DNA of 64,000 nt from an uncultured Candidatus Saccharibacteria bacterium (GTDB lineage Bacteria; Patescibacteriota; Minisyncoccia; Phycocordibacterales; CAIRYW01), in contig CAYLQP010000001.1 of NCBI GenBank assembly GCA_964386665.1, positions 48,111-112,110 of the forward strand. Direction: 5' to 3'. The position numbers and the translations under genes were made by a program. The notes below the pieces were generated by a model. That model was given only the letters and a program-made list of their open reading frames with translations, made no database searches and was not told where the DNA came from. Below are positions 6,701 through 26,962 of this stretch, piece after piece. The stretch's first letter is position 1; each line of letters opens with the position of its first letter.

Positions 6701-6966
6701 GATTTGGAGAAATGGAAGTGTGGGCCCTGTTGGGACACGGTGTGGCATATATGCTTCGAGAAATGCTTACAGTAAAATCTGATGATATTGCGGGACGATC
6801 AGCAACGTTTGATTCTATTGTACGAGGAGAGCGAATCAAGGCACCAAACTCACCTGCATCATTTAATGTATTGCTTGCAAACATTAGAGGATTGGGACTT
6901 GATATTAGTTTAGATCGGTCGAATTCTATTAACGGAGAACAAGATGACGCACCTACAACTGTGTAG
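3718..6966 (+). CDS. rpoB: DNA-directed RNA polymerase subunit beta
   Basis: 1082 aa. Conserved RpoB blocks across the whole length. Shorter than E. coli RpoB (lineage-specific insertions absent). Confidence 0.97.
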   Translation: MSKVKHHTLAHSSTLGESANTKNKKYFAKYKEPLAPLPNLIEGQLNSFKWLVKAGLKEVFDEYTKIADYSGKKFEFSFGSFELGTPKYDARFAMENKINFEAPLKVMVKLKNKILSTEKEQEVFLADFPVMTENGTFIINGIERVIVPQLARSFGVFFTSSESKGINLFGAKVIPARGAWVEIETDSDGALYVRIDRKRKFPVSLLLRAFGAKDNEAMLSAFNGEPQAKKYMEATLAKDSFKTAEESFMEIHKRLRDGDLANADNAKEFVTGLFDGERYDLSPVGRHRFNKRFNKSMDPKELARKTLSLDDLNTIIIHLAHLNSDVDAIPDDIDHLGSRRVRYVGELIQQKLRVGMTQIKRNIQNRMSTIDTDATLPVQFISPRPMQARIKEFFTTNQLSQFMQQENVLTELEHLRTVSALGPGGLTRERAGLEVRDVHASHYGRICPIHTPEGPNIGLVLHLASYAKINDFGMIEAPFAKVKNGKITKEVEYMNALEEENYIIAHAGTNYDKSGNIVGEVVEVRVKGRPMMVARDQVQYIDVATNEAFSIATSMIPFLNHDEANRALMASNMQKQATPCVIAEAPLVATGVERQAANDICRVIQATEDGVVTYVDGKKIKVKYGKTETEYLLSQFSRTNQFTAFHQRPQVRVGDEVKAGTVLADASTTVNGEMALGQNCLVAFMTWQGQNYEDAIVLSQRLVKDSKFTSIHIEEFVVNVRDTKLGPEITTHDIPNVGENKLKNLDEDGIIRIGAEVRPGDILVGKITPKGETQLTPEERLLRSIFGEKSRDVKDSSKRMENGKRGRIISVKVFSREKGDKLESGIIKRIHIEVAQLRNVSVGDKLAGRHGNKGVISVVLPEEDMPYMPDGTPVDVVLTPLGVPSRMNLGQILELHLGLAAHSLDYQAIVPPFAGATDVEIKDELKKAGFNENGKMTLFDGRTGEAFEQDISVGYMYILKLHHMVEDKIHMRSIGPYSLITQQPLGGKAQGGGQRFGEMEVWALLGHGVAYMLREMLTVKSDDIAGRSATFDSIVRGERIKAPNSPASFNVLLANIRGLGLDISLDRSNSINGEQDDAPTTV

Positions 6967-7005
6967 TTTGTATCATCTATCTTTACATCTTTAATTTAAA
7001 ACACT

Positions 7006-10000
7006 ATGTATAAAAAAAGAGAAAGAAATCAATTTGATGAAATTTCAATCAAAGTTGCATCCCCTGATAGAATTCGAGAATGGTCATTTGGAGAAGTAAC
7101 AAAACCTGAGACGATGAACTATCGAACTCAGCGAAGTGAAAAGAACGGTCTGTTCGATGAAAAAATCTTTGGACCTGACAAAGACTTCGAATGTTACTGT
7201 GGAAAGTATAAAGGAATCCGATACAAAGGAATTATTTGTGAAAAATGTGGTGTTGAAATCACACGATCAGTTGTACGACGAGAAAGAATGGGGCATATTG
7301 AACTTGCAACTCCTGTTGCACATATATGGTTTCTTAGATCTATGCCTTCTCGAATCAGCCTTCTTCTTGGACTTCAATCAAGTGAAGTAGAAAAAGTAGT
7401 GTACTTTGCTGGGTATTTGATCACAAAGGTAAACGAAGGAGAACGAGAACGAGTGCTCAATGACTTGGATTCAGAATTTAAAGCAAAGATTAAAACAGTT
7501 ACTGATGACAAGACTAAAGATGCGATTCGAGATCTTCTTGTTACTACAAAAAATGAAATCGAAAGTATCAAAGCTGGAAAAGTACTTGATGAAGTAAAGT
7601 ATCACAAATTCTCAATTAAATACGGAACAATCTTTGAGGCGTCAATTGGAGCTGAGGCGATTTACAATATCTTCAAGACAATTGATCTCAAGAAGTTAAC
7701 AGAAACTCTTGAGGCAGACCTTGAAAAGGCAAGTTCACTTGATAAAGAAAAAATTAACAAACGACTTGGAATTGTAAAATCAATGCTTGAGTCTGGTATT
7801 CGACCTGAATGGATGTTTTTGACTGCGATTCCTGTGATTCCTGCAGCACTTCGTCCTATGGTTGCTCTTGATGGAGGACGTCACGCTACTTCAGATGTAA
7901 ACGATCTTTACCGACGAGTGATCAATCGAAACAACCGATTGAAGAAACTCAAAGAAATATTTGCACCAGATGTAATCCTTCGAAACGAAAAACGAATCTT
8001 GCAAGAAGCAGTTGATGCGCTTGTTGATAACTCTATTCGACACGGAAACGCTTCATTTGCAGGAGTAAATCAAGCACAACGACGACCGCTTAAATCGCTT
8101 GCTGATAACCTCAAAGGAAAACGAGGATTGTTTAGACAAAACCTTCTTGGAAAACGAGTAGACTACTCTGGACGATCGGTGATTGTAGTAGGTCCTGAAC
8201 TTGATCTTGCTGAATGTGGACTTCCAAAACATATGGCTCTTGAATTATTCAGACCGTTTGTAATTTCTCAAATTCTTGCAAAAGAGCTCGCGTATAACAT
8301 TCGAGGAGCATCAAAACTTATTGATGAAGGAATTCCTGAGGTATGGGCAATTCTTGAAAAAGTAATTCAAGGAAAATACGTTCTTCTTAACCGAGCACCA
8401 ACACTTCACCGACTAGGTATTCAAGCTTTCAAACCTATCCTTATTGAAGGAAATGCGATTCGAGTTCACCCACTTGTGTGTGCGGCGTTTAACGCGGACT
8501 TCGACGGAGACCAAATGGCGGTTCACGTACCTCTTTCTGAAGAAGCACAAACAGAAGCACGGGAGATTATGGCATCTGATAAAAACATCTTGAAACCAGG
8601 AAGTGGAAACCTTATTGCTTCAGTTGATCGACTCGATATGGTACTTGGATGTTTCTGGATGACATCAGTGATTGCAGGAGAAAAAGGAGAAGGAAAAATA
8701 TTTGGCTCTACTTCAGATGCGGTGCTTGCTCATTCATTTGGTGAACTTTCTTTCCGAGCAAAGATTACAGTTCTCCCTGGAGCGGAAGAGAAGTTTAAGG
8801 AATTTGAAGGAAAAGCGTTTGAAACTTCGCTTGGACGACTTCTCTTTAATGAACTCTTGCCAGAAGATTACACATTTATCAACAAAGAGGTGGATAAAAA
8901 AGTAATGGCAGGAATTATGTCTGAACTTACTTCTAAATACGGAATCGAAAAACTTCCAATCACTCTTGACCGAATCAAGAACTTTGGTTTCAAATACGCA
9001 ACAGTATCTGGAGTAACATGGGGAATTGATGATATTCAAGTGCCACAAGAAAAATACACAATCATTGACGGTGCAAAGAAAAAATCAGAAGAAGTAGTAA
9101 GTCAATATAACGATGGACTTCTTTCAGAAGATGAACGCAACCGAAAAAATATTGAAATCTGGCACGCAGTGAAAGCGCAAGTAGAAAAAACAGTTCTTGA
9201 AAGTCTTGATAAGCAAGGATCGGTGTATACAATGTGGAAATCTGGAGCTCGAGGATCTGCATCTCAAATTACGCAAATGGCAGGTATGAAAGGACTTATT
9301 CAAAACGCGACTGGAGAAACACTTGAACTTCCAATCCTTTCATCAACAAAAGAAGGATTTAACCCAATTGAATACTTCGTAAACACTCACGGTTCTCGAA
9401 AAGGTCTTACGGACACTGCCCTTAACACCGCAAAAGCTGGATACCTTACTCGACGACTCTTCGTATCTGCACAAGATGTGATTATCACAGAAATGGATTG
9501 TGGAACTAAAGAAGGTATTATGCTCCGAAAGGAAACTGCTTCTGGAATCGAAACTCCAATTTCAAAGATTGTGAAAGGGCGAGTATTGGCAACTGACGTA
9601 ACAACAAAAGATGGTTCTGTATTATTCAAGAAAAACCATATGCTTACAAACGAAGATGCACTTGCACTTGAAAAAGCTGGTGTAGAAGAAGCATTTGTTC
9701 GAAGTCCTTTGACTTGTAAAACACTTCGAGGAATGTGTGCACATTGTTACGGATTAGATCTTGGAAAAAACAAACTAATTGACTTGGGAGAAGCAGTGGG
9801 AACAGTTGCTGCTCAAGCGATTGGAGAACCTGGAACGCAGCTTACAATGAACACAAAGCACGCCGGAGGAGCATCGTCAGCTGGAGGAGACGTTACACAA
9901 GGACTTCCTCGAGTAGAAGAAGTATTTGAAAAACGAGCACCAAAAAATCCTGCTGCAGTTGCAACATATGATGGAGTTGTTACAGAAATTAAAGAAGAAG

Positions 10001-10680
10001 GAAAATACAAACTTATTGCGATTGCTCCAGATTCAGGAGAAAAATCAAAATCAAAAGCCAAGAAAGATGCGTACGTATATGAAGTGTATCGAGGACGTGT
10101 ACCTTTGGTGAAGGTGGGAGAATCAGTTACAAAAGGACAAGTTCTTACTGATGGATCAGTAAATATTGATGACCTATTCAAATATGCTGGTAAAGAGGTG
10201 ACTGGAGAATATATTATTTCTGAAATTAAGAAACTGTATGAACTTCAAGGAGAGCCGGTAAACCGAAAACACATTGAACTTATTGTTAAGCAAATGTTCT
10301 CTCGGGTGAAAATTAAGTCAGCAGGAGGAACTGTGTTTGCAGTAGGAGATGTGGTGGAATGGCAAGAATTCTTCGACCAAAACGAAAAAGCAAAGAAAGA
10401 AGGTCTTGAAGAATCGAAGTCAGAATCAATCGCACTTGGAATCACTGAAGTATCACTTTCACGAAAGAGTTTCCTTTCTGCGGCATCATTCCAACACACA
10501 ACTCGAGTACTTATTTCTTCAGCAGTGGAAGGATCAAAAGATACACTTACAGGACTTATGGAAAACGTTATCCTTGGACGACTTATTCCAGCAGGAAGTG
10601 GATTTAAAGGAAGTCAAAAAGCAGAAATCATCTCAAAGCTTCAAGAAACATTTGAAGATAACACAGAATCAAATTATTAA
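7006..10680 (+). CDS. rpoC: DNA-directed RNA polymerase subunit beta-prime
   Basis: 1224 aa. N-terminal zinc-binding Cys cluster (CYCGKYKG...CEKCGVE), the NADFDGD catalytic motif, the bridge helix and the trigger loop are all present. Confidence 0.97.
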
Positions 10681-10729
10681 TAACTATGGGAACAAGGAGA
10701 AGTATGTCACTTCTCCTTTACCATAATCT

Positions 10730-12421
10730 ATGTCATCTACAACAGAGAAAATAAAAGATCGGTTATCGATTGTCGACGTTCTCTCAAGTTACATTACGAT
10801 AGAAAAAGCTGGGGGAAGTCTCAAAGCACGGTGTCCTTTTCACAACGAAAAGACCCCTTCCTTTTTCATCTCGCCTGAGCGTAATACATACTATTGTTTT
10901 GGATGTGGAGTAAAAGGAGATATCTTTTCTTTTGTGCAAGAATTCGAACATTTGGATTTCTTGGGTGCATTGAAACTACTTGCAGAGCGTGCAGGAGTAG
11001 AAATAGAATCCTTCAAAGGAGGAGAGTTAGATACAAAAAAAAGAGTATTTGATTGTCTTGAAGAGGCAACAGTATTTTTTCAACAAAAACTTAAGGGTCA
11101 AACCGAAGCGCTCTTGTATCTAAAAAAACGAAGTCTTTCTATTGAAACTGTTCGCGATTGGCGTATAGGATTTGCTCCTGATGACTGGTATATACTTGGA
11201 GATCACTTAAAACAAAAAGGATTTACAGAAAAAGAAATCGAAAATGCCGGACTTATCAAACAAGGTGAAAAGGGGAGACCATACGCACGGTTTCGTGGAC
11301 GAATAATGTTTCCTATCTTTGATGGTTCGGGACGGGTGGTTGCATTTTCAGGAAGAATCTTGTCAAAGACGAGCGAAGAAGCAAAATATATTAACTCACC
11401 AGAAACACCTGTATTTGAAAAATCAAAAGTGTTGTTTGGATACCATAAGGCAAAAAAAGGAATACGTGAAAAAGGATTTGCTCTCTTGGTAGAAGGACAA
11501 ATGGATTTACTCTTAAGTCACGAAAAAGGGTTCGACAACACACTTGCTTCTTCAGGAACTGCGTTTACTTTCGAACAAGCTGAGATTATTAAGCGGCTCA
11601 CTGACGTGCTTTATATTGCGTACGATGCAGATAAAGCGGGACAAAATGCTGCCTTCCGGGCGTGGATCTTGGCACTTAAAGCAGGTCTTGAAGTGAAAGC
11701 AGTGTACTTGCCCGATGGACTTGATCCAGCTGATGCAATTGCCCGTGACCCACAGATTTGGGTTGATGCTGTCTCAAACGCAAAACATATTATTGAGTAT
11801 TATATCGAACTGCTTGATGGAGATGATAAAAAAAGAAATAACGAAATCTTGCGTGAAAAAATCTTCCCGCTTGTAAAGTCTCTTGCTAGTTCAATAGATG
11901 AAGCAAGATGGCTTCAGGTAGTTTCTGGGAAAACAGGTCTCCCTGAAAGTGCTCTTCGTCAGGAGTTAGCAAAGATAAAAGAAATGTCTTTCGATGGAGA
12001 GGAGCATATAGCCCATACACCACAAAAAACAACTATCGATATTCCTGCAAAAAAAGCATTGATGCTCTTGTGGATTTTGAAGGAAAAGCAAAGTGAAGCG
12101 TATGAAAGCTTCAAAGAAAAACTCAGTGATCTTTTACCTCATTTAGAGACGCTTGAGGCAGAGTTACAAAAAGAAAAAGAAGCACTTTTGTTTGAAGCTC
12201 AGATGCATTACGCAAATTCTCCCAATATGAATCAGTTACTCAAGGAGACTTTGTATCTACTTGAGGAAGATGGCTTAAAGCAAAAGTTTGCAGAATCAAT
12301 GGAAAAACTAAAGAGAGCCGAAAATGTTCAGGATACAGAATCTATCGAAAGAGAAACAAAACGATGTCACGATCTATCACTTCTTTTATCAACATTACGC
12401 CAAAAATATTTTAATAACTAA
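10730..12421 (+). CDS. dnaG: DNA primase
   Basis: 563 aa. Zinc-ribbon CPFHNEKTPSF...CFGCG followed by a TOPRIM core (EGQMD). Starts 49 bp after the rpoC stop. Confidence 0.9.
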   Translation: MSSTTEKIKDRLSIVDVLSSYITIEKAGGSLKARCPFHNEKTPSFFISPERNTYYCFGCGVKGDIFSFVQEFEHLDFLGALKLLAERAGVEIESFKGGELDTKKRVFDCLEEATVFFQQKLKGQTEALLYLKKRSLSIETVRDWRIGFAPDDWYILGDHLKQKGFTEKEIENAGLIKQGEKGRPYARFRGRIMFPIFDGSGRVVAFSGRILSKTSEEAKYINSPETPVFEKSKVLFGYHKAKKGIREKGFALLVEGQMDLLLSHEKGFDNTLASSGTAFTFEQAEIIKRLTDVLYIAYDADKAGQNAAFRAWILALKAGLEVKAVYLPDGLDPADAIARDPQIWVDAVSNAKHIIEYYIELLDGDDKKRNNEILREKIFPLVKSLASSIDEARWLQVVSGKTGLPESALRQELAKIKEMSFDGEEHIAHTPQKTTIDIPAKKALMLLWILKEKQSEAYESFKEKLSDLLPHLETLEAELQKEKEALLFEAQMHYANSPNMNQLLKETLYLLEEDGLKQKFAESMEKLKRAENVQDTESIERETKRCHDLSLLLSTLRQKYFNN

Positions 12422-12432
12422 TTTGAAACACC

Positions 12433-13725
12433 ATGAAAAACAAAAAAACTAAAGTTCAAAAGAAACCAAAAGCCAAAGTAACTTCAAAACCAAAAATCAA
12501 ACCAAAAAAAGTTGCGTCAAAACCAAAGAAAGTTGTTACGAAGGCAAAAAAAGTTGCGTCAAAACCAAAGAAGGTGGTCTCAAAACCAAAAAAAGAAGTA
12601 AAGTTAAAAACCAAAAAGACTGTCGTTTCATCTCCAAAAAATACAAAAAAATCTTCTGATCTCTTGGCGGGAGCAGAACGGATTTTGCTTAAAGGAAAAG
12701 ATAGGGGGTTTGTGACATATGACGAGATTCTTAAAGAATTCCCACATATCGAAGATGATGTGATGTTTCTGGATGAATTATACGAAAAACTCCAAAGTGC
12801 CGGAGTAGATATCCTTGAAGGAGGAGGACTTCTTGAAGTACATACAGATGAAGATGATTTTCTAAAAAAATATGGATACGGAGGAAAAAGTGAAAACTAC
12901 GACTCAATCCAAATGTATCTGAAAGAAATCGGTCAGTACCCACTCATTCATGCATCGGCTGAAAAGGACTTGGCACGTCGAATTGGTGCAGGAGACGAAG
13001 AAGCAAAAAACTTGCTTGCAAAAGCAAACCTTCGACTTGTGGTTTCGATTGCAAAGAAATATGTAGGACGATCTCCTGATCTCACACTTCTTGACCTTAT
13101 TCAAGAAGGAAACCTTGGGCTCTTTAAGGCGGTAGATAAATTTGACTGGTCAAAAGGATTTAAGTTTTCAACATATGCGACGTGGTGGATTAGACAATCA
13201 ATCACACGTGCACTTGCAGACCAATCACGAACAATTCGAGTTCCTGTGCATATGGTTGAAACAATTGCAAAATACAAACAAGTCGTACGACGACTCTCTC
13301 AAGATCTCGGACGTGATCCACTTCCAGATGAGATTGCGGTTGAAATGGGACTTGATGTTGATAAGGTGTACCAAATCGAAAAGATTGATCAAACTACCGT
13401 ATCTCTTGATACGCCTGTTGGAGATGAAGGAGACAAGGAATCAACATATGGAGACTTTATTGCAGATGATAAGATTCCATCTCCAGATCAAGATTCTGCA
13501 CATCGGATTTTGGGAGACCAAGTGCGTGAAATCCTTGATGATCTATCTGAGAAGGAGCGAAGAATCCTTGAAATGCGTCACGGACTTGTTGATGGGATCC
13601 AACATACACTTGAAGAAGTAGGAAAGATGTTTAATGTGACTCGAGAACGAATTCGACAAATCGAAGCAAAAGCACTTGAAAAGATTCGAACTCACGAAAA
13701 AGTAGGAAGATTAAAAAATTATTAA
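12433..13725 (+). CDS. rpoD: RNA polymerase sigma-70 (primary sigma factor) with a Lys-rich KPKK-repeat N-terminal extension
   Basis: Regions 1.2, 2, 3 and 4 are recognisable ([23 protein letters not shown], and the region-4 [23 protein letters not shown]). The first ~65 aa are [11 protein letters not shown] repeats. Starts 11 bp after dnaG. Confidence 0.9.
12460..12625 (+). repeat. tandem coding repeats encoding (V/A)SKPKK(V) units
   Basis: A near-identical ~27-nt unit (gttgcgtcaaaaccaaagaa...) is iterated about five times at the 5' end of rpoD. Confidence 0.6.
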
Positions 13726-13731
13726 AACAAA

Positions 13732-13764
13732 AGCCCGTTCGCCTCTGGTGGACGGGCTTTTGCA
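13732..13764 (+). terminator. intrinsic terminator after rpoD
   Basis: agcccgt...acgggct hairpin followed by TTTTGCAATT. Confidence 0.5.
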
Positions 13765-13794
13765 ATTAGCAAATTTTAGGTGTAAATTTAGTGT

Positions 13795-14739
13795 ATGAAA
13801 CACATAAAACTGTTTAAAGATTTGACCAAAAACGATGCTCATATTGCAGGTGGGAAAGGGGCTAGTCTTGGTGAGATGACAAATGCGGGTATCCCGGTCC
13901 CAGGAGGGTTTGTGATCACAAGTGAATCTTTTGAATTTTTCTTATCCCAAAATGATTTAACTCAAGAAATTGAAGCGATTCTAAAGAAAGTGAATCATAA
14001 AGAAATGGAATCAGTAGAAAGAGCAAGTGAGAATATAAAAGAACTTATTTTAAAAGCGACACTGCCAAAAGAAATGCAAAAAGAGATAAAAACAAACTTT
14101 GCAAAACTTAAGGCAAAATTTGTGGCAGTGAGAAGTTCTGCAACTGCTGAGGATGGGGTAGAGCATGCGTGGGCAGGACAACTCGATAGTTTTTTAAATA
14201 CTACTACGAAGAATTTGGAAGAAAATGTGAAGCGATGTTTTGCGTCACTCTTTACTCCGCGAGCAATCTTTTATCGATTTGAAAAAGGTCTAAATAAAAG
14301 TCATATATCAGTTGCGGTTGTTGTTCAAAAGATGATCCAAAGTGAAAAGTCTGGAATTGCTTTTTCGGTGCATCCTGTGACAGAAGATAGAAATCAAATG
14401 ATTATAGAAGGTTCGTGGGGACTTGGTGAGGCGATTGTTTCTGGGCAGATTACACCAGATTCGTATGTGATCGAGAAAGATACAAATACAATTATTGATA
14501 CAAATGTCGCCGAAAAGGCCAGAGGCCTTTTCGGCGACAACAAAGGCAAAAATGTGTGGAAAAACATTCCAAACAAAAAGGCAAACGAACAATGTCTCTC
14601 TGGAAAAGAAGTGATTGCTCTAGGAGAAATCATAAAACGAATAGAAAAGCATTACGGATTTCCTTGTGATATCGAATGGGCGTATGAAAAGAAAAAGTTT
14701 TTTATTGTACAAAGTAGACCTATTACTACGCTAAAATGA
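13795..14739 (+). CDS. PEP synthase / pyruvate-phosphate dikinase-family ATP-binding (PPDK_N, ATP-grasp-like) domain protein, stand-alone
   Basis: 314 aa. Matches PPDK_N blocks: GGKGASLGEM..GIPVPGGFVIT, AVRSSATAEDG..AGQLDSFLN, SGIAFSVHPVT, IEGSWGLGEAIVSGQITPD, and the IEWAY..FIVQSRPIT C-terminus. It ends right after this domain and carries no His-swivel or PEP-binding domain. Confidence 0.75.
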   Translation: MKHIKLFKDLTKNDAHIAGGKGASLGEMTNAGIPVPGGFVITSESFEFFLSQNDLTQEIEAILKKVNHKEMESVERASENIKELILKATLPKEMQKEIKTNFAKLKAKFVAVRSSATAEDGVEHAWAGQLDSFLNTTTKNLEENVKRCFASLFTPRAIFYRFEKGLNKSHISVAVVVQKMIQSEKSGIAFSVHPVTEDRNQMIIEGSWGLGEAIVSGQITPDSYVIEKDTNTIIDTNVAEKARGLFGDNKGKNVWKNIPNKKANEQCLSGKEVIALGEIIKRIEKHYGFPCDIEWAYEKKKFFIVQSRPITTLK

Positions 14740-14757
14740 ATATCAAATTAAAATTAT

Positions 14758-15537
14758 ATGCAAGAATTTAATTTTATAAGACATGCTGAAAAAATGAATG
14801 AAGGTGAGGAAAGGTGTGCACTGAATGAATCTGGATTAACTTTATCACAACAGGAAAAATGGACGAACGCTGTAGACAGATTGAATCTCGAAGATCCACA
14901 AATTAGATTCGAAGCTTTACCTAAGATTGAGGAATTGGCAAAGATTATATGTGAAAAATTACCAGACAGAGCTCTTCTTATTTTTAATTCAACAGACACA
15001 CCTCGCACTAAATTGACTGCTGATTTTTTATCTACTTCTGTTATTGAAGATGCAAAAAAACAAGGTAAAGATATAAGAGTTGCTTTTATATGGGAACCAA
15101 AAGATAAAGCTAAAGAAGACGGTTCTCTAATGAGGGTTTCAGAGAGTGTTGGAACACCAACGATGTTAAGACTTATGCAAGAGGTGGAAGAAAGTAATGA
15201 TGATAGTTTAGAAAGATATCTAACTTCAGGTAAAGGAGGATTTGCGCACCCAAAAGAGGATGAGTTGGTTATGAAAGCTGTTAACAGTGATCTTGCTAGA
15301 GGAGAGAATTCTCTTTTCAGAAAAAGGGCTCAAGTATTAAGAGTACAGGCGGATCGTATAAAAGAGAAATTTACTGAAAAAGATTTACCACTATATTTTT
15401 TTGGCATTGGTCATCATGGAAGTCTTGTAGCACTTGATGTTGCTTTTAATGAACGTACGCATTATGATTCAGTAGATCAAATACCACAGCCACTAAGTGT
15501 ATGGAGTGCTAATTTAAATACAGAAAATGAAAGCTAA
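14758..15537 (+). CDS. histidine-phosphatase-superfamily-like protein (noncanonical RHAEK signature)
   Basis: 259 aa. Has FNFIRHAEK near the N-terminus, an LT..Q.EKW element, and a C-terminal GIGHHGSLVALD block that resembles the second catalytic His region of PGM/SixA-type enzymes. The assignment is tentative. Confidence 0.4.
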   Translation: MQEFNFIRHAEKMNEGEERCALNESGLTLSQQEKWTNAVDRLNLEDPQIRFEALPKIEELAKIICEKLPDRALLIFNSTDTPRTKLTADFLSTSVIEDAKKQGKDIRVAFIWEPKDKAKEDGSLMRVSESVGTPTMLRLMQEVEESNDDSLERYLTSGKGGFAHPKEDELVMKAVNSDLARGENSLFRKRAQVLRVQADRIKEKFTEKDLPLYFFGIGHHGSLVALDVAFNERTHYDSVDQIPQPLSVWSANLNTENES

Positions 15538-16555
15538 ATTAATAAAAACTTTTACTCGAGAATTTCCTCTTATACATGTTCAAATATGGGGAAGGAGATA
15601 TGCAACAGAATTTCTTGGTGAAAAGTTACCTAATGTTCCGATCCATGTCTTTTTTTTGAAAGATGGGCTGGTTACCGGTTACAAAAACACTCCAAGTCAG
15701 TCTGAGGTTATTAACCCAATTATTCGAAGTAAATTGGATAATGATCCAGATTTTATTAAAAAATATGTAAGTAATAAATCTGATCTTCTAGAAAAACTAT
15801 TTAAAATAAACGAAAACAGTAACTTGTCGCTCGAAAATTTTAAAAAGTATCTTTTAGATCTTTTTGAATATTGGCATATTCATTACATTGCTCAATTTTT
15901 ACCTCTTGATGAAAATAGGTTTACAAAAGAAGAGCGTGACTATGCAATGGATCTAAGAAAAAAAATAGAAAAAGCAATTCATAATTCTTGGAATTCTTTA
16001 GTGCCTATTCTCAAAAAACTTTTTCCTGATTTAGGTGAACTAGTAACATACATTGAATTGGATGAGTTGCTGAAATCAAAAATACCAGATAAATCAGAAC
16101 TTGAAAAAAGAGCAAAAGACGGCGTGTTTGTTTATAATGGTGATGTTGTCAATAAAGAACAGTTAAGTGAATTAGAAGAAAAAAATAATTTTGAAGTTGA
16201 GTGGAATAATATGGTTGATGAAGCAAAAGAAATAACAGGACAGATTGTGTACCCTGGAAAAGTAACTGGCAACGTTAGAGTTATCTTAAAAAAAGATGAT
16301 GTGGTTAACTTTAAAGACGGAGAGGTCCTTGTTTCTTATATGACGATGCCTGCTTTTATCTTTGCTATACAAAAAGCTTCCGCTTTCGTGACCGACGAGG
16401 GAGGAATCACCTGTCACGCCGCCATCGTCGCCCGCGAACTCAAAAAACCCTGTATCATCGGCACCAAAATCGCAACAAAAGTGTTGAAGGATGGAGATTT
16501 GGTGGAGGTGGATGCGGAGAAGGGGGTAGTTAAGATACTTAAAAGAGTAAATTAA
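15527..16555 (+). CDS. PEP-utilizing-enzyme mobile (phosphohistidine swivel) domain protein with a ~250-aa N-terminal domain of unknown function
   Basis: The C-terminal 80 aa match the PEP-utilizers domain (GEVLVSYMTMPAFIFAIQKASAFVTDEGGITCHAAIVARELKKPCIIGTKIA...DGDLVEVDAEKGVV). Overlaps the previous gene by 11 nt, suggesting translational coupling. Confidence 0.7.
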   Translation: MKAKLIKTFTREFPLIHVQIWGRRYATEFLGEKLPNVPIHVFFLKDGLVTGYKNTPSQSEVINPIIRSKLDNDPDFIKKYVSNKSDLLEKLFKINENSNLSLENFKKYLLDLFEYWHIHYIAQFLPLDENRFTKEERDYAMDLRKKIEKAIHNSWNSLVPILKKLFPDLGELVTYIELDELLKSKIPDKSELEKRAKDGVFVYNGDVVNKEQLSELEEKNNFEVEWNNMVDEAKEITGQIVYPGKVTGNVRVILKKDDVVNFKDGEVLVSYMTMPAFIFAIQKASAFVTDEGGITCHAAIVARELKKPCIIGTKIATKVLKDGDLVEVDAEKGVVKILKRVN

Positions 16556-16572
16556 TATATAAAATCAAAACA

Positions 16573-17325
16573 ATGAATCCAGAAGCATTACCGAGTGAAG
16601 AAGAACAATTTAGAACCAGAGTAGTGTTAGATTTCTTTAGGCATGATGAAAAAGATTTAAACAACACAGAACCTAAAAAAACAGATGAGGAAGTGGAGCT
16701 GACTCCTAAAGGAAGACATGATGCAAGAGTGCATGGAAAACTAGCTGATATTAAGTTTGCCATAGCAACCGCAACAGATAGGGTTCGAGCACAACAGACG
16801 GCAGGATATCATATGGCGGGTATGGTTGATGGGGTAACAGGAGATGAAACATCAGAAGAATTAGAACAAAAAATAAATAAAGGGACTAAGTATGGCAGTA
16901 AAACAAGGATTGATGGTAGATTAAATACATATTCAAATCAAATATCAAATATTGCAACAATTGTTTTAAAGTATATAGAAGTTGCAAAAAACTTTGATAG
17001 ATTATATGAATCTACAGAGGTTTCTAAGAGAGAAACTAATGAACTACAGAGATTTTTTGGATCACACCAAGGGGTAACTGAGCCTTTTCTTGCCAAACTT
17101 ATAGAGATGAGGAGAGGTGTTGAAGAAAAAGATAAGTTTTTAAGTATGTTGAATAAGGGTGGTTTTGATTTTTCGGAAGGGTTTAAAATAATGATACTAA
17201 ACACAGACAATGAATCTGAACCAAAAATTCAGATAAGCTACAAAAAAGAAAAGAACGGAGAAGTTTTTGAATTTGACGAGGAAATAACAGTAGATGAAAT
17301 TAAGGAGTTGTCCTTGAAAGAGTAA
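16573..17325 (+). CDS. histidine-phosphatase-superfamily-like protein, paralogous in motif layout to 14758..15537
   Basis: 250 aa. Has VVLDFFRHDEKD, then LTPKGRHDARVHGK (the LT..G..QA-like block), then a late GSHQG motif. Tentative. Confidence 0.4.
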   Translation: MNPEALPSEEEQFRTRVVLDFFRHDEKDLNNTEPKKTDEEVELTPKGRHDARVHGKLADIKFAIATATDRVRAQQTAGYHMAGMVDGVTGDETSEELEQKINKGTKYGSKTRIDGRLNTYSNQISNIATIVLKYIEVAKNFDRLYESTEVSKRETNELQRFFGSHQGVTEPFLAKLIEMRRGVEEKDKFLSMLNKGGFDFSEGFKIMILNTDNESEPKIQISYKKEKNGEVFEFDEEITVDEIKELSLKE

Positions 17326-17542
17326 AATGGATCTAAGTATATTTTTCCGAATTTAAACAAGATGTTTTTGTAAAGAAATCATCTTGTTGTTTGTTGTAAG
17401 GTTGTATTTAGGTAGTTTGTTTTACTCGACTTTAGCTTTTTGATATATCCACAGGTCGTAAAAGACCTTCTATAAAGCCAGTTTTTTGCTCTTGACTTTG
17501 AAAAAATTTACAAAAAATAAGATTTGTTTTGAAGCACTAAAA

Positions 17543-17577
17543 AAGTGTGTAAAAGAGCTATACACTTGGTTTTTTTT
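17543..17577 (+). terminator. terminator-like or attenuator hairpin in the long leader upstream of nrdB
   Basis: aagtgtgta / tatacactt stem followed by GG and an 8-T run. It lies about 220 bp after the previous gene and about 55 bp before the nrdB start. Confidence 0.4.
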
Positions 17578-17632
17578 AAAGTAAAATTATAAGTCCAAGA
17601 CAAATTATTTATTAACATAATCAAAATTCCCT

Positions 17633-18901
17633 ATGGCAATTGAACTCATCATAAAAAGAAATGGATCCGTTGTTAATTTTGATCGGTCACACATTGAGAT
17701 TGCTCTTTCAAAAGCATTCAAGGCAACCGAAGTGGATGTTACTCCCGAAAAAATAGTTGAGATTACTGATCTCGTAATTGTGAAGCTTCGAGAACGATTT
17801 GGAAATAGTGTTCCAACAGTTGAAGGAGTTCAAGATTTCGTAGAAATTGCCCTGATGGAATCAGGTTTTCATACTACCGCAAAAGCGTATATCTTGTATC
17901 GACAGGAACACGCGGAACTTCGAAAGCGAGACATATTCAAAAAGCGTTTGGCACTCAAACCTTACGAATACCCAGAGCTTCTTGAATATGTTGATGGTAT
18001 CAGACATTCATATTGGCTTCACACTGAGTTTAACTTCACTTCAGATATTCACGACTATATGGTGAACACAACATCGCTTGAAAAAAATGCACTAAAAAAC
18101 GCTATGCTTGCGATTGCTCAAGTGGAAGTGTCGGTTAAAACATTTTGGGGAGATATTTACAAAAAGATTCCTAAACCAGAAGTTGGTGCGGTAGGGGCAA
18201 CCTTTTCAGAAAGTGAAGTGCGCCATCAAGATGCGTATGCACACCTTATCGAAATCCTCGGGCTCAATCACGAGTTTGAAAGGATTAAAGAAATTCCAGC
18301 AATCATAAGTCGGATTAACTACATCGACAAAGCAATTGCAAACGCTCACTCAGATCACCACAAGGAATACTCAAAAACACTTCTTTTGTTCTCTCTTTTT
18401 ATTGAACACGTTTCGCTCTTTTCTCAGTTTCTTATTATTATGTCTTTCAATAAACACAAGGGGCTCTTTCGAGGGGTATCAAACGTTATTGAGGCAACGT
18501 CAAAAGAAGAACAGATTCACGGACTTTTTGGAATCGATCTTCTTAGAATCATCAAATCAGAATACCCACAATGGTTTACGGAGGAGTATAATGAAACAGT
18601 GCTTGAACTTTGTCGTGAAGCATACGAAGCCGAAAAAGAGATTGTTGATTGGATATTTGAAAAAGGGGAGCTTGATTTCTTACCAAAACAAACTGTGCTC
18701 GAGTTTATAAAGAATCGTTTCAATAATTCTCTGCAATCACTTGATTTACCAAAAATCTTTGAAATAAACCAAGAAATACTTGAACAGACAGATTGGTTTG
18801 ATGACGAGATTATGACAACCAAACATCTTGATTTCTTTGTAAAGCGTTCTGTGAATTATAATAAAAGAGTAGAAAGTATCACAGGAGAAGATTTGTTTTA
18901 A
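17633..18901 (+). CDS. nrdB: class I ribonucleotide reductase small (radical-generating) subunit with an N-terminal ATP-cone
   Basis: 422 aa. Residues 1-95 match the ATP-cone (IIKRNGSVVNFDRSHIEIALSKAF...AYILYRQE). The rest is the ferritin-like R2 core (EVRHQDAY, FIEHVSLFSQF). Confidence 0.85.
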   Translation: MAIELIIKRNGSVVNFDRSHIEIALSKAFKATEVDVTPEKIVEITDLVIVKLRERFGNSVPTVEGVQDFVEIALMESGFHTTAKAYILYRQEHAELRKRDIFKKRLALKPYEYPELLEYVDGIRHSYWLHTEFNFTSDIHDYMVNTTSLEKNALKNAMLAIAQVEVSVKTFWGDIYKKIPKPEVGAVGATFSESEVRHQDAYAHLIEILGLNHEFERIKEIPAIISRINYIDKAIANAHSDHHKEYSKTLLLFSLFIEHVSLFSQFLIIMSFNKHKGLFRGVSNVIEATSKEEQIHGLFGIDLLRIIKSEYPQWFTEEYNETVLELCREAYEAEKEIVDWIFEKGELDFLPKQTVLEFIKNRFNNSLQSLDLPKIFEINQEILEQTDWFDDEIMTTKHLDFFVKRSVNYNKRVESITGEDLF

Positions 18902-18928: not shown

Positions 18929-20602
18929 ATGTATTGGCTCAACGAAAATAGTAGAAAGTTTCTTGCGAAAGATTATCTGATGAATGGTCAGGCGGCAGAG
19001 GATCGAATCCGTGATATTGCAAACACTGCAGAAAAGATCCTTGGGATTCCTGGATATGCTGATAAGTTTTATGGGTATATGGAAAAAGGGTATTACTCAC
19101 TTTCAACACCGGTCTGGGTAAACTTCGGAGTAGAAAAAGGACTTCCTATTAGTTGTTTTGGTTCATACATTGGAGATACGATGGGAGATATCCTTTATAG
19201 TAATGCTGAAGTAGGAATGATGAGTAAAAAAGGAGGAGGAACATCAGGGTATTTTGGAGACTTGCGAGCACGTGGTTCATCGATTACAAACAATGGTTCA
19301 TCATCAGGACCAGTTCACTTTATGGAGTTGTTTGATGTGATGGCAAATATTGTAAGCCAAGGTTCAACTCGAAGAGGACATTTTTCACCATATCTTCCAG
19401 TTGAGCATCCCGATATCGAAGAGTTTCTTGATATTGGAACAGAAGGGAACAAGATCCAAGGTCTTACTCACGCAGTGACTGTGACAAACAAATGGCTTGA
19501 AGAAATGGTTGCAGGAGACGAAAAGAAACGTGCAATCTGGGCCAAGATTCTTAAACGACGAACAGAAATGGGGTATCCGTATATTATGTTTGCTGACAAT
19601 ATGAATAATGGAACAGTAGATGTGTATAAGGATAAGGGACATAAGATTTTGGGAAGTAATCTTTGTAGTGAAATTGCCCTTCCTTCAAGTGTGGATTGGT
19701 CATTTGTATGTTGTCTTTCTTCAATCAACCTGATGCACTTCGATGCATGGAAAGATACTGATGCGGTTGAAACGCTCGTCTACTTCCTTGATGCAGTGAT
19801 GGAAGAGTTTATTCTCAAACTTGAAGGTTACCGAGATAGTGAAAACAGAGAACGAAGAAATGAATTTATTTTCTTGGAACGAGCATACAACTTTGCAAAA
19901 CAAAACCGAGCTCTTGGACTTGGAGCACTTGGACTCCACTCACTATTCCAAAGCAAGATGTATGCGTTTGAAAGTGCGGAAGCTCAGAAACTCAATGTGG
20001 AAATCTTCAAATTCATTCACGAACGAGCTTACAAAGCATCAAAGGAACTTGCAGAAAAATTCGGCGAACCAGAAGTTCTCAAGGGATACGGCAGACGAAA
20101 TACAACACTTATGGCAGTTGCTCCAAACACTTCTTCAGCATTTATCTTGGGACAAGTATCTCAAGGGATAGAACCAATCTGGTCAAACTGTTACGTAAAA
20201 GATATCGAAAAGATGAAAGTAACTATCAAGAACCCTTTCCTTGAAAAACTTCTTGAAGAAAAAGGTCAAAACACAAAAGAAGTGTGGCAAACTATTCGAG
20301 ACAGAGATGGTTCAGTTCAACACCTCGACTTCCTGTCAACAGAAGAAAGAATTATTTTCCAAACATTTGCTGAGATCGACCAATACGCGGTGATCGACCA
20401 AGCAGCGGCACGACAAAAGTATATTGACCAAAGTCAATCACTTAACCTTATGATTAATCCGAAAACTACTTCAGCAAAAGAAATCAATGCACTCTATATG
20501 GATGCGTGGAAACAAGGGGTAAAGACGCTCTACTATCAGCACAGTATGAATGCAGCCCAAGTACTCAACCGAAAGAAGGTGTGTATTGCGTGCGAAGCGT
20601 AA
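18929..20602 (+). CDS. nrdA: class I ribonucleotide reductase catalytic subunit, short form lacking an ATP-cone
   Basis: 557 aa. Active-site NLCSEI motif and a C-terminal CIAC redox pair. No N-terminal ATP-cone. Confidence 0.9.
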   Translation: MYWLNENSRKFLAKDYLMNGQAAEDRIRDIANTAEKILGIPGYADKFYGYMEKGYYSLSTPVWVNFGVEKGLPISCFGSYIGDTMGDILYSNAEVGMMSKKGGGTSGYFGDLRARGSSITNNGSSSGPVHFMELFDVMANIVSQGSTRRGHFSPYLPVEHPDIEEFLDIGTEGNKIQGLTHAVTVTNKWLEEMVAGDEKKRAIWAKILKRRTEMGYPYIMFADNMNNGTVDVYKDKGHKILGSNLCSEIALPSSVDWSFVCCLSSINLMHFDAWKDTDAVETLVYFLDAVMEEFILKLEGYRDSENRERRNEFIFLERAYNFAKQNRALGLGALGLHSLFQSKMYAFESAEAQKLNVEIFKFIHERAYKASKELAEKFGEPEVLKGYGRRNTTLMAVAPNTSSAFILGQVSQGIEPIWSNCYVKDIEKMKVTIKNPFLEKLLEEKGQNTKEVWQTIRDRDGSVQHLDFLSTEERIIFQTFAEIDQYAVIDQAAARQKYIDQSQSLNLMINPKTTSAKEINALYMDAWKQGVKTLYYQHSMNAAQVLNRKKVCIACEA

Positions 20603-25695: not shown

Positions 25696-26169
25696 ATGAA
25701 CCTGATTTATATTGCATCTGACCACGCAGGATTTGGGCTCAAAGAAGAGTTAAAAGTTTTTCTTGAGACACTTGGATATCAAGTAATTGATAAGGGTCCT
25801 TTTATGCTTAATCCAGAAGATGATTATCCAGAACTTGTATTACCTGTCGCACTTGAAGTTGCAAAAGATTCAAATGCGAAAGGGATTGTTATTGGTGGAA
25901 GTGGACAAGGGGAAGCTATGGTGTGTAACCGACTTAGGGGGGTGCGTGCAGTGGTGTTTAATGGACAATATGAACCAAAAGATGGACGGACTGTTCCAAA
26001 CGAGATTCGAGTTTCTCGGGAACACAATGATGCAAATATTCTTTCTCTTGGTGCTCGGTTTATAAATACACAAGAGGCAAAAATTGCAGTTAATGTGTGG
26101 CTTGGTACAAAGTTTTCGGGAGACGAAAGGCATGTGAGGAGAATTAAAAAGATAGATGAAATTTTATGA
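25696..26169 (+). CDS. rpiB: ribose-5-phosphate isomerase B (RpiB/LacAB family)
   Basis: IYIASDHAGFGLKEEL, GIVIGGSGQGEAMVCNR. Confidence 0.85.
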   Translation: MNLIYIASDHAGFGLKEELKVFLETLGYQVIDKGPFMLNPEDDYPELVLPVALEVAKDSNAKGIVIGGSGQGEAMVCNRLRGVRAVVFNGQYEPKDGRTVPNEIRVSREHNDANILSLGARFINTQEAKIAVNVWLGTKFSGDERHVRRIKKIDEIL

Positions 26170-26957
26170 TTGAGATAATTAATAAGAGTTATCAAAAATC
26201 AAAATTGATCTGGGAGTCCCGTATCCTGGTAATTTTATTCCTATGTTTAGTGACTTACAAGTATTCTTTTTTTATGTTTTGTGGTGTGGGTTATGAACCA
26301 TCTTTTATCCCATCAATTTGTTATATTTTTTATATCTTGTACATTCTTATTCCTTTGAATGTTATATTAATAATTATTAATATATTCAGCAAACGATTTG
26401 TAAAAATAAGTTTTTATTATGTAGGATTCTTTTTGTTTTTTATGTCTTTAATATTTCCTCTTGTTGGTAAATTTTGGGATCAGTATAAATATTATAAAGG
26501 TTATGATAGTGAACTTGAGCAAAGTATTGTCGAATATAAGAATTCAATTGATAATTATTTTATTTTAAATCAACGTGACGAATCTAAGGTCACTGAATGT
26601 ACAATTTATCATTTTTCCCAAATTAATAACTTTAAAGAATTGCATAAGGTATTAAATTTTGATATATGTGGCATCAAATATTTTTTTGATCCAAATCGTT
26701 CGGACCAAAGCATAACTTATGATCTTTTAAAAAAGGACAGACCTAAACTGAGGGGGTTTCCTCATAAAACTCAGGGTAGCTATATTTACGGGATAGACAT
26801 TTTCCGAACGAAATTTAAAGTCTATCTTTTTCCTAAAATTATTAACAGATCAGGAATGAATCTAATTTATCAACAGGGGATTATTGAAAGTATTTTTGTT
26901 GATGAAAAATGGGTTGATTTCAGATCTTATGCTTTAGAGAATTTAAAAGAAAAATAA
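26166..26957 (+). CDS. hypothetical membrane protein, strongly AT-rich orphan
   Basis: 263 aa. Three or four N-terminal TM helices and a soluble Tyr/Lys/Asn-rich C-terminal half. Codon usage is far more AT-biased than the flanking rpiB and rpe. Confidence 0.5.
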   Translation: MIEIINKSYQKSKLIWESRILVILFLCLVTYKYSFFMFCGVGYEPSFIPSICYIFYILYILIPLNVILIIINIFSKRFVKISFYYVGFFLFFMSLIFPLVGKFWDQYKYYKGYDSELEQSIVEYKNSIDNYFILNQRDESKVTECTIYHFSQINNFKELHKVLNFDICGIKYFFDPNRSDQSITYDLLKKDRPKLRGFPHKTQGSYIYGIDIFRTKFKVYLFPKIINRSGMNLIYQQGIIESIFVDEKWVDFRSYALENLKEK

Positions 26958-26962
26958 AATTT

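Follow-up and report, generated by a model that had tools for sequence, protein, structure and literature searches.

The systems closest to the gene block described here are the characterised two-component dikinases PpsAB, CreHI and HpeHI (PMC12167813), namely the phenylphosphate synthase PpsAB of Thauera/Aromatoleum, CreHI of Corynebacterium and HpeHI of Rhodococcus, which have a separate ATP-grasp subunit, one for each swivel subunit, and belong to aromatic catabolism. The dikinase reaction of this class turns ATP, substrate and H2O into AMP, Pi and phospho-substrate and requires both subunits. In HpeHI the ATP-grasp subunit is HpeI, while HpeH has its substrate domain in front of a C-terminal swivel domain, and the T/SxxGGxxxH motif with its catalytic His has been described for HpeH, rifampin phosphotransferase (RPH) and PEP synthase (PEPS) alike; the genes of the two subunits are adjacent, and RPH is the single-chain relative (PMC12167813). 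In RPH (PDB 5FBS, 5HV1) and in the PRK06241/PigC/RedH class, the order is ATP-grasp domain, substrate domain and swivel. The swivel His domain also occurs in the PTS phosphorelay (Enzyme I, HPr/NPr, SixA), where SixA, an enzyme of the histidine phosphatase (HP) superfamily, acts on the phospho-His carrier NPr~P and dephosphorylates a PTS phosphocarrier (PMC7948535). The first-pass annotation of our locus had assumed that ATP-grasp and swivel domains always sit in one polypeptide, a premise to which PpsAB, CreHI and HpeHI are the counterexamples (PMC12167813).

The locus, from an ultra-small bacterium of the Patescibacteria type, is a block of four tightly packed, co-directional genes, g1 to g4 (Table 1), and the four ORFs proposed by the first-pass annotation were all confirmed in the window, by which we mean the whole 64-kb stretch of DNA analysed. 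Gaps of 18 nt and 17 nt separate g1 from g2 and g3 from g4, while g2 and g3 overlap by 11 nt. On the 5' side the block is preceded by rpoB, rpoC, dnaG and rpoD, and on the 3' side it is followed by nrdB and nrdA. Its GC content, 0.347, is lower than the window mean of 0.388, and since only 3% of the 3.5-kb windows are equally low, the AT-richness noticed at first sight is genuine but modest. The identical g1-g4 arrangement is found in two independent Logan assemblies (L001 and L002), and unrelated assemblies also carry orthologous split arrangements.

Table 1. Positions of the g1-g4 genes and of the two parts of g3 in the window
Feature	Position	Strand	Description
g1	13795..14739	+	314 aa; stand-alone ATP-grasp (PPDK_N) nucleotide-binding subunit
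g2	14758..15537	+	259 aa; divergent histidine-phosphatase-fold protein
g3, whole gene	15527-16555	+	342 aa; N-domain then swivel
g3 N-domain, residues 1-230	15527..16216	+	beta-strand and long-helix; proposed second-substrate-binding domain
g3 swivel (PEP-utilizers) phosphohistidine domain	16217..16555	+	His297 codon 16415-16417
g4	16573..17325	+	250 aa; histidine-phosphatase-superfamily (branch 1-like) protein

As for the ATP-grasp subunit, g1 matches Pfam PPDK_N with E=2.3e-101 over profile positions 3-312 of 328 and contains no other domain, so that its description as a stand-alone PPDK_N protein holds. In NCBIfam it best matches the N-terminal third of PEP synthase (PRK06464, 346 bits) and RPH (272 bits), all scores being far under the full-length cut-offs, and its alignment runs along the whole ATP-grasp domain of RPH. 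Orthologs in other cassettes are 58-90% identical, and a locus never has more than one copy, even beside up to 9-10 swivel genes. We propose that g1 is a shared ATP-dependent charger of swivel-domain proteins.

In g3, residues 262-333 of 342 match Pfam PEP-utilizers (E=3.6e-24) and carry GGITCHAAIVARE, which bears out the assignment of a swivel behind an N-terminal domain. The catalytic residue is His297 in T289-x-x-G-G-x-x-x-H297, which agrees with the T/SxxGGxxxH motif, and throughout 42 homologs the motif T289-D-E-G292-G293-I-T-C-H297 is invariant or nearly so, with no variation at all in T289, G292, G293 and H297. Among PDB sequences the swivel is closest to the archaeal PEP synthase 8a8e (profile E=1e-38) and then to RPH (9e-21); in fact PEP synthase (PpsA)/PPDK is the group with the highest sequence similarity for both g1 and the swivel, as seen also in the GGxTCHAAIVAR motif with its Thr next to the catalytic His. 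Unlike these enzymes, however, the present system has separate genes, lacks the PEP/pyruvate-binding TIM barrel and has an extra domain N-terminal to the swivel. The PEP_synth model of NCBIfam gives only 335 and 98 bits where 740 is required, g3 terminates with the swivel, and Pfam finds no PEP-utilizers_C domain in any of the four genes. A single PEP synthase gene disrupted by frameshifts, or else a chance cluster of unrelated genes, might be suspected, as PEP synthase models score best for g1 and the swivel and the g4 of the window has an internal deletion; but such an artefact is extremely improbable, considering that no TIM-barrel domain is left in g1-g4, that no PPDK_N or swivel gene other than g1 and g3 exists in the 64 kb, that the order of N-domain and swivel is the reverse of that in PEP synthase, that g2 sits between g1 and g3, and that each gene has full-length orthologs. 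With the same split conserved in many independent assemblies, no TIM barrel and the domain order of RPH, we rejected a broken PEP synthase.

A Pfam search of all four proteins, as suggested in the first-pass annotation, matched g1 and the g3 swivel, while the N-terminal ~230 aa of g3 and the whole of g2 were unmatched and g4 remained below threshold. The best structural matches of g3 are RPH, with alignments that reach well past the swivel domain, and we propose that the N-domain is a shortened relative of the rifampin-binding domain of RPH, binding the second substrate. It has ~230 aa compared with ~430 aa in RPH, to which it aligns only partially and with a large rmsd; hence its ligand could be a partner protein instead of a small molecule. 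A similar difference separates g3 from the HpeH type, which is larger (catalytic His581) and has a full RIF-binding-like domain (PMC12167813).

Since no solved structure is closer to g3 than RPH, the g1 alignment spans the full RPH ATP-grasp domain, and RPH stands in a broad family of small-molecule dikinases of which some act on antibiotics (PMC12167813), one may ask if the cassette is a phosphotransferase for rifamycin or another antibiotic placed beside the target genes rpoB and rpoC, the larger arrays described below then being antibiotic-inactivation batteries; the fusion of a detoxification-type methyltransferase to one g4-type protein would also fit. We regard this as very unlikely. Against the RPH equivalog NF041857, g1 and g3 score 272 and 57 bits where the cut-off is 999, and the N-domain has about half the required length, i.e. 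half the size of the rifampin-binding domain. Moreover, both g1 and the swivel are nearer in sequence to PEP synthase than to RPH, and DPANN-labelled archaeal MAGs have the same arrays. Examination of the gene neighbourhoods, likewise suggested at the outset, revealed that the split cassette is conserved elsewhere, but in unrelated surroundings, and that the adjacency to rpoBC was seen in this genome only; the proposed rifamycin link is therefore unsupported. Compared with RPH, then, the enzyme of the window is split, its substrate domain is shortened, and a conserved link to rpoB is absent.

The other two genes, g2 and g4, had been suspected to be HP-like, and both are members of the HP superfamily which keep the R-H...R...H catalytic set shared with branch 1 (dPGM, PhoE, CobC, SixA), rather than an unrelated family devoid of the catalytic His. 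They differ from branch 1 by scores below the Pfam gathering threshold, by RHA or RHD for the usual RHG, and by large family-specific insertions. In g2 the motifs are RHAEK and GIGHHGS, and the candidate catalytic residues are R8-H9, P82-R83, E113 and H219/H220; R8, H9, R83 and E113 are invariant in the family and H219 is 90% conserved, with the adjacent H220 present where H219 is missing, while E113 would be the acid residue as judged from spacing only. No match was found for g2 itself in Pfam, NCBIfam or PDB sequences, nor for its family profile in PDB sequences. It has the alpha/beta/alpha HP fold, with a large helical cap that is absent from SixA, and its motifs align with those of protein P0187, which passes the Pfam His_Phos_1 cut-off and so provides a transitive link; g2 itself does not reach the His_Phos_1 gathering score, and its membership holds at the level of the superfamily only. 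The g2 family is extremely rare, and in every context seen its gene overlaps a g3-type gene, the overlap of g2 stop and g3 start being 11 nt in every ortholog.

The motifs of g4 are RHDEK and GSHQG, and although the protein alone scores 20.8 bits with Pfam His_Phos_1, just under the cut-off of 21.7, its family profile matches PhoE (1EBB, E=9e-6) as well as some 20 further His_Phos_1 structures. Residues R23, H24, R72 and H165 do not vary among 25 homologs, of which 6 have a precomputed PF00300 match and one is named a histidine phosphatase family protein. Compared with every homolog, the g4 of the window has lost ~46 aa internally, a deletion that L001 and L002 share in identical form and that takes away the near-invariant segment FLVEESD present in 24 of 24 homologs; without this segment it may be inactive.

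Comparison across genomes places the block in a wider context. In Patescibacteria and in DPANN-labelled MAGs, a single g1 gene is accompanied by swivel genes, from 1 to 10 or more of them, often with HP-like genes interleaved. The swivel domains of these paralogs are 50-65% identical to each other, while their N-domains are highly diverse: clustering by N-domain sorts 125 swivel proteins into 52 groups, and the longer paralogs have N-domains that align with the substrate domains of RPH, PigC and RedH. The g1 and g3 types are directly adjacent in seven loci (L001, L003, L006, L008, L012, L014, L017), and in most loci examined they adjoin or lie within ~5 kb of each other. Furthermore, g1 is fused to g3-type modules in L065, L028, L019, L055 and L018. 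Rosetta-stone proteins of 673 aa (Parcubacteria, L065) and 688 aa (Saccharibacteria, L028) join g1 with both parts of g3 and thereby show the RPH domain order in one chain, and single ORFs of 1399, 1994 and 3761 aa combine g1 with 3-8 modules, the longest one containing eight. Such fusions would support functional coupling of g1 and g3 only, the dikinase chemistry being a matter apart.

In other genomes HP-like genes recur 9-18 nt from swivel genes, as expected if the cassette is a real functional unit; those of the A2 type occupy such a position at 6 of the 41 array loci and at 0 of the 36 PEPS-type loci. HP genes, present at only a minority of the unbiased array loci, are accessory. They are very diverse, and an array may contain several of them or, often, none: g3-type genes free of any HP gene, for example in L004, L008 and L010, are frequent. 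One array of Nealsonbacteria contains a canonical His_Phos_1 gene, and the array of L024 contains a phosphomutase of another family (PGM_PMM). The gene neighbourhoods gave no hint of the substrate, G6PD/6PGD or PGM being nearby in few loci only. Nor is there support for the symmetric scheme in which each half of the dikinase has an HP partner of its own, for g2 and g3 are a conserved pair whose genes overlap, g4-type genes come after different swivel paralogs, and a single g1 would be shared by one to many swivel genes. Altogether part of the first-pass interpretation is borne out: the domain assignments of g1 and g3, the HP identity and the functional unit stand, while the one-polypeptide premise, the symmetry and the rifamycin link are not supported.

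Considering all these results, we find it fairly probable that g1 and g3 form a split dikinase of the RPH/PpsAB/HpeHI class with a small-molecule substrate, and that g2 and g4 are HP-fold enzymes in the same pathway. In the mechanism that we infer, g1 would bind ATP; the swivel of g3 would dock on g1, where His297 accepts the beta-phosphate with release of AMP and Pi; and the swivel would then return to the N-domain of g3 itself, where the phosphate passes to the small-molecule substrate. The block would be the minimal form of a modular system in which a single ATP-grasp subunit serves swivel proteins that number from one to ten or more and all differ in their N-domains. The system departs from HpeHI, CreHI and PpsAB in several respects: a single g1 has from 1 to 10 or more swivel paralogs next to it, HP-fold genes are interleaved, the genomes are of the ultra-small symbiont type, and the g1 and swivel sequences are nearer to PEP synthase.

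In the split-dikinase reading, g2 would be translationally coupled to g3, and g2 and g4 would most likely be substrate-specific phosphohydrolases or mutases acting on the phosphorylated product or a precursor. A kinase and a phosphatase working on the same group would make a futile cycle, so that the scheme requires either an additional step or a phosphate at another position. Indirect evidence points to HP enzymes that are specific for small molecules rather than directed at the carrier, because g2 has its cap, the HP genes are diverse, and in one protein a g4-type domain is joined to a TPMT/TehB-like SAM methyltransferase. The opposite view, that g2 and g4 are SixA-like phosphohistidine phosphatases which brake the dikinase by resetting or regulating the phospho-swivel and do not act on a metabolite, has a precedent in the action of SixA on the PTS phosphocarrier (PMC7948535) and agrees with the tight linkage of HP and swivel genes. 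We hold it to be rather unlikely, because the SixA type is minimal (~160 aa) and capless whereas the g2 and g4 homologs have 250-300 aa with large insertions, and because a regulator of the conserved swivel is expected to be itself conserved and single-copy, which the HP genes are not; the methyltransferase fusion, of small-molecule type, also speaks against it.

Alternatively, as the first-pass annotation suggested, the phosphate could be relayed from ATP to His to His, from phospho-His297 of g3 to the catalytic His of g2 (H9) or g4 (H24), with the N-domain of g3 docking the HP protein, which would then be a terminal phosphotransferase or a "primed" mutase. HP enzymes use a phospho-His intermediate and can accept phosphate from phospho-His proteins, the invariable 11-nt overlap suggests that g2 and g3 are a stoichiometric pair, the N-domain is about half as large as known substrate domains, and the phosphomutase in the L024 array would be in keeping with the idea. 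This relay is nonetheless unlikely in our estimation: g3-type modules are widespread without g2, no HP domain fused to a swivel module exists among the 125 swivel proteins or the giant ORFs, the diversity of the HP genes beside a highly conserved swivel fits varied small-molecule substrates better than one protein, and a large cap such as that of g2 is typical of small-molecule HP enzymes. The likeness to the PTS has its limits as well, since the donor here would be ATP via the ATP-grasp domain and not PEP via a TIM barrel; Pfam and NCBIfam detected no Enzyme I C-domain, HPr or EII in g1-g4, and matches to PTS models are confined to the swivel.

To sum up, two-component dikinases were already known, and what is new here is one g1 with many swivel genes whose N-domains are diverse; in the literature we found no report of HP genes being associated with dikinase swivel genes in genomes. 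The g1-g4 block is the smallest version of a system in ultra-small bacteria and archaea that has itself apparently not been described. A bolder extension, which taken with all its layers we consider unlikely, would see in Patescibacteria and DPANN archaea an ATP-driven phosphotransfer network of three layers, in which one ATP-grasp protein charges many different swivel-His carriers, each carrier has its own recognition domain, and in some branches, e.g. g3/g2, a dedicated HP-fold protein takes the phosphate from the carrier His onto its own catalytic His. If true, such a hub-and-spoke system would be a PTS-like relay powered by ATP, and it would provide phosphorylation or mutase priming for scavenged metabolites where many ordinary kinases are missing.

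The four genes of the cassette, g1 to g4, were recovered with the same coordinates, lengths and forward strand as in the first-pass annotation, with 18 nt between g1 and g2, an 11-nt overlap of g2 and g3, and 17 nt between g3 and g4. The neighbours described there were likewise found, namely rpoB and rpoC, then dnaG and rpoD upstream (the last two as Pfam families in L001, a locus with cassette homologs), and nrdB and nrdA lie downstream. The AT-richness of the block is real but modest, with a GC content of 0.347 compared with a mean of 0.388 across the window, and only 3% of the 3.5-kb windows across the 64 kb have a GC content as low. Since terminator-like sites on the forward strand are absent within the cassette, and promoter-like as well as terminator-like sites show no enrichment over shuffles, the arrangement of g1 to g4 appears consistent with one operon. 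An Rfam scan of the whole 64 kb gave nothing at the gathering score and no tRNA, rRNA or riboswitch match, and PADLOC gave zero matches for anti-phage defence. Elsewhere in the window, the lowest-GC 1 kb (26001-27000, 0.284 against the same mean) overlaps the ORFs 26166-26957 and 25696-26169. Of the two ribonucleotide reductase genes (17633-18901 and 18929-20602), that for the small subunit NrdB bears an N-terminal ATP-cone, an unusual placement of this allosteric domain on the radical-generating subunit, and the large subunit, at 557 aa a short one, gave no ATP-cone match.

For g1 and g3, a two-component dikinase is the reading best supported by sequence. Protein g1 is a complete PPDK_N ATP-grasp domain with no other domain (Pfam E=2.3e-101), and its best NCBIfam matches are PEP synthase (346 bits) and rifampin phosphotransferase, RPH (272 bits), in each case to the N-terminal third, all scores staying well under the full-length cut-offs. 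The C-terminal part of g3 (residues 262-333, Pfam E=3.6e-24) is a PEP-utilizers phosphohistidine domain, the swivel, whose T289-DE-GG-ITC-H297 motif is invariant or nearly so among 42 homologs and fits the T/SxxGGxxxH signature known for HpeH, RPH and PEP synthase (PMC12167813). The first ~230 residues of g3 have no Pfam match; in the AF2 model (pLDDT 92.5) long helices come after a small beta-sheet in this N-domain, and the top Foldseek match for g3 is the rifampin phosphotransferase 5fbs (E=4.9e-13), with 257-272 aligned columns. Because RPH ranks first, the modelled N-domain is probably related to the substrate domain of RPH, in shortened form, with a match that covers it in part only. From these homologies we infer dikinase chemistry for the pair: ATP would be bound by g1, the phosphate would pass onto His297 of g3 with release of AMP and Pi, and the swivel would then carry it to a substrate held in the N-domain. 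The two-component dikinases HpeHI, CreHI and PpsAB, as well as RPH, follow the same scheme (PMC12167813).

The g1 coding sequence also holds a perfect 16-bp inverted repeat with a 3-nt loop (window 14505-14539, TGTCGCCGAAAAGGCC-AGA-GGCCTTTTCGGCGACA), which encodes VAEKARGLFGD and lies in a 57-nt segment with a folding energy of -30.5 kcal/mol. The hairpin is kept in the L006 and L014 orthologs by paired changes (GGCC/GGCC to GTCC/GGAC and to GACC/GGTC) and is not kept in more distant orthologs; the palindromic codons of AEK and LFG explain the repeat in part.

Could the cassette be a PEP synthase broken by a disruption or by the assembly, as the first-pass annotation itself allowed? This reading was ruled out, with PEP-utilizers_C unreported in all four proteins, and the 64 kb contain no other PPDK_N or swivel gene. 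In g3 the N-domain precedes the swivel, opposite to the order in PEP synthase, and g2 sits between the ATP-grasp half and the swivel half. Moreover, full-length orthologs exist for each cassette gene, and the split recurs in independent assemblies. The speculative link to the rifamycin target genes did not survive the neighbourhood check either, and a role in rifamycin resistance was rejected: rpoBC adjacency is not kept, and cassettes in other genomes adjoin quite different genes, for example queuosine/EVE genes, G6PD/6PGD, BacA/PAP2 or GroEL, so the place beside rpoBC seems incidental.

In other genomes each locus has one g1 gene, never more, alongside one to many swivel genes. A wider survey, in which GTDB species genomes were scanned by swivel-domain patterns and annotated with local HMMs (80 loci listed, so that frequencies are rough), added tandem arrays of 9-10 swivel genes (L030, L024), the Nealsonbacteria contig MHMM01000017 with more than 12 (L027/L032) and arrays in Woesearchaeota (L041). 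Taxon labels follow the records, and mis-binning may lie behind some of them, as it may for the array-bearing MAG contigs labelled Gammaproteobacteria, Planctomycetota or Methanosarcinales. The window itself was placed in Patescibacteria on the names carried by its homologs.

Cassette genes of the window, with representative arrays and fused forms at loci (L handles) of other genomes
Feature	Position	Strand	Content
g1	13795-14739	+	314 aa ORF
g2	14758-15537	+	259 aa ORF
g3	15527-16555	+	342 aa ORF
g4	16573-17325	+	250 aa ORF
L003			PPDK_N, six swivel genes, g2 ortholog, weakly g4-like gene
L012			four swivel genes, g2, g4-like gene, PPDK_N
L014			PPDK_N, three swivel genes, g4-type gene
L017			one PPDK_N among at least 10 swivel genes, plus g2 and further RH-motif ORFs
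L008 (contig labelled Nanoarchaeota)			PPDK_N, three swivel genes
L065 (Parcubacteria)			fused g1, g3 N-domain and swivel, 673 aa
L028 (Saccharibacteria)			fused g1, g3 N-domain and swivel, 688 aa
L055			fused g1 and 3 modules, 1399 aa
L019	7619-13603		fused g1 and 4 modules, 1994 aa
L018 (Woesearchaeota)	6881-18166		fused g1 and 8 modules, 3761 aa
L021	16-8814		giant single ORF, at least 2932 aa, one ATP-grasp then tandem N-domain and swivel modules

The fused forms provide Rosetta-stone evidence that g1 would work with g3 and with other swivel modules. The giant ORFs (L018, L021 and L019), from Woesearchaeota and other uncultured MAGs, have one ATP-grasp followed by 4-8 tandem modules. The N-domains are diverse, with 125 swivel proteins falling into 52 clusters, and those of longer paralogs align over 130-250 residues with the substrate domains of RPH, PigC and RedH; the swivel domains are conserved, being 50-65% identical. 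Just downstream of the L003 array lie toxin-antitoxin pairs (13559-14069 and 16049-16541, ParD/YoeB and PhdYeFM-type).

The remaining two genes, g2 and g4, belong to separate lineages of the histidine phosphatase (HP) fold. For g2 no match was found in Pfam, NCBIfam or PDB, and the family profile has no match in PDB either; since sequence searches of PDB gave nothing, the assignment needed a fold search and a transitive match, through P0187, a distant relative that clears the Pfam His_Phos_1 cut-off and whose alignment to the g2 family has a probability of 97.8%. Relatives are few, only 27 in a profile search across 1.84 billion representatives. Within the g2 family, R8, H9, R83 and E113 are invariant and H219/H220 nearly so. 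In the g4 family (25 homologs) R23, H24, R72 and H165 are invariant, and its profile matches PhoE (E=9e-6) and about 20 further branch-1 structures. The catalytic R-H residues are thus invariant in both families, contrary to the concern that these proteins might come from an unrelated family without a catalytic His. That g2 and g4 are paralogs was ruled out, as BLASTP and hhalign show no significant similarity past the RH motif. The g4 of the window lacks ~46 residues found in all 24 homologs, including the near-invariant FLVEESD segment, while its ORF is intact; the identical form in two other assemblies indicates a genuine deletion, and this copy may be impaired, inactive or altered. In L039 (6896-8554), directly downstream of a swivel gene, one ORF joins a g4-type HP domain (residues 7-306) to a TPMT/TehB-type class I SAM methyltransferase, which occupies residues ~340-495.

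Orthologs of g2 always immediately precede a swivel gene of the short type, whose start they overlap. The g4-type genes come after swivel genes of varied type, and no pairing with one swivel subfamily was found, their partners spanning different N-domain clusters. Among GTDB loci collected regardless of HP genes, HP genes of the A1/A2-type classes occur in 6 of 41 array-type loci and in 0 of 36 PEP-synthase-type loci (Fisher p=0.03, confounded by taxonomy), at 9-18 nt from the swivel gene in five loci and 752 nt in one. The Nealsonbacteria array includes a canonical His_Phos_1 gene (E=1e-11), and other arrays contain further RH-motif ORFs. Because HP genes are missing next to many g3-type genes, the HP proteins are best regarded, from gene context, as accessory to the dikinase system.

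As for what they do, we favour substrate-specific phosphohydrolases or mutases acting on small molecules of the same pathway, because g2 and g4 have large cap insertions absent from SixA, because HP genes vary widely against a conserved swivel domain, and because one HP protein is fused to a small-molecule-type methyltransferase. The His-to-His relay proposed in the first-pass annotation, from the phospho-His of g3 to the His of an HP protein, draws some support from the g2/g3 gene overlap and the small N-domain of g3, but g3 modules exist without g2 and no HP-swivel fusions were found. The HP proteins could possibly act as a SixA-like brake on the dikinase, with which the diversity of their genes fits poorly. 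Neighbouring genes give a weak hint of sugar-phosphate metabolism, with a PGM_PMM phosphomutase inside one swivel array (L024 6303-7634) and G6PD/6PGD near arrays in only 3 loci (L006 3980-6239, L016 11523-13847 and L042 1757-4189); this being too weak, the role was dropped as a claim. In L006 the 6PGD gene and the called PPDK_N gene overlap by ~60 nt. In two distant genomes (L004 5104-7930, L008 2737-3891), the PPDK_N and g3-type genes have saccharopine-dehydrogenase-like and Orn/DAP/Arg decarboxylase genes, both of polyamine type, between or next to them.

The split of ATP-grasp from swivel is not itself novel as first thought, for PpsAB, CreHI and HpeHI are already split. We found no description of these arrays in the literature, of which journal coverage was incomplete; the papers on HpeHI and SixA were the only pertinent ones. 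Four features nevertheless differ from every described system found: the short substrate domain; one ATP-grasp gene with many swivel genes, at times fused into giant proteins; the occurrence mainly in Patescibacteria and DPANN-labelled MAGs; and the recurrent company of HP-fold genes. This repeated pairing of dikinase swivel genes with HP-fold proteins appears to be a new association. Patescibacteria and DPANN genomes are ultra-small, with ~1000 genes, and yet in some of them 10-15 kb are spent on one ATP-grasp gene with up to at least 10 swivel paralogs, or on proteins of up to 3761 aa; so large a share of the genome implies that the function is important. Were every module to phosphorylate a compound of its own, scavenged or host-derived, this could account for the way in which metabolites are activated, trapped or detoxified with few conventional kinases. 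The recently recognised two-component dikinase subfamily, known from aromatic catabolism, would also gain a modular design in which one ATP-grasp protein serves many swivels.
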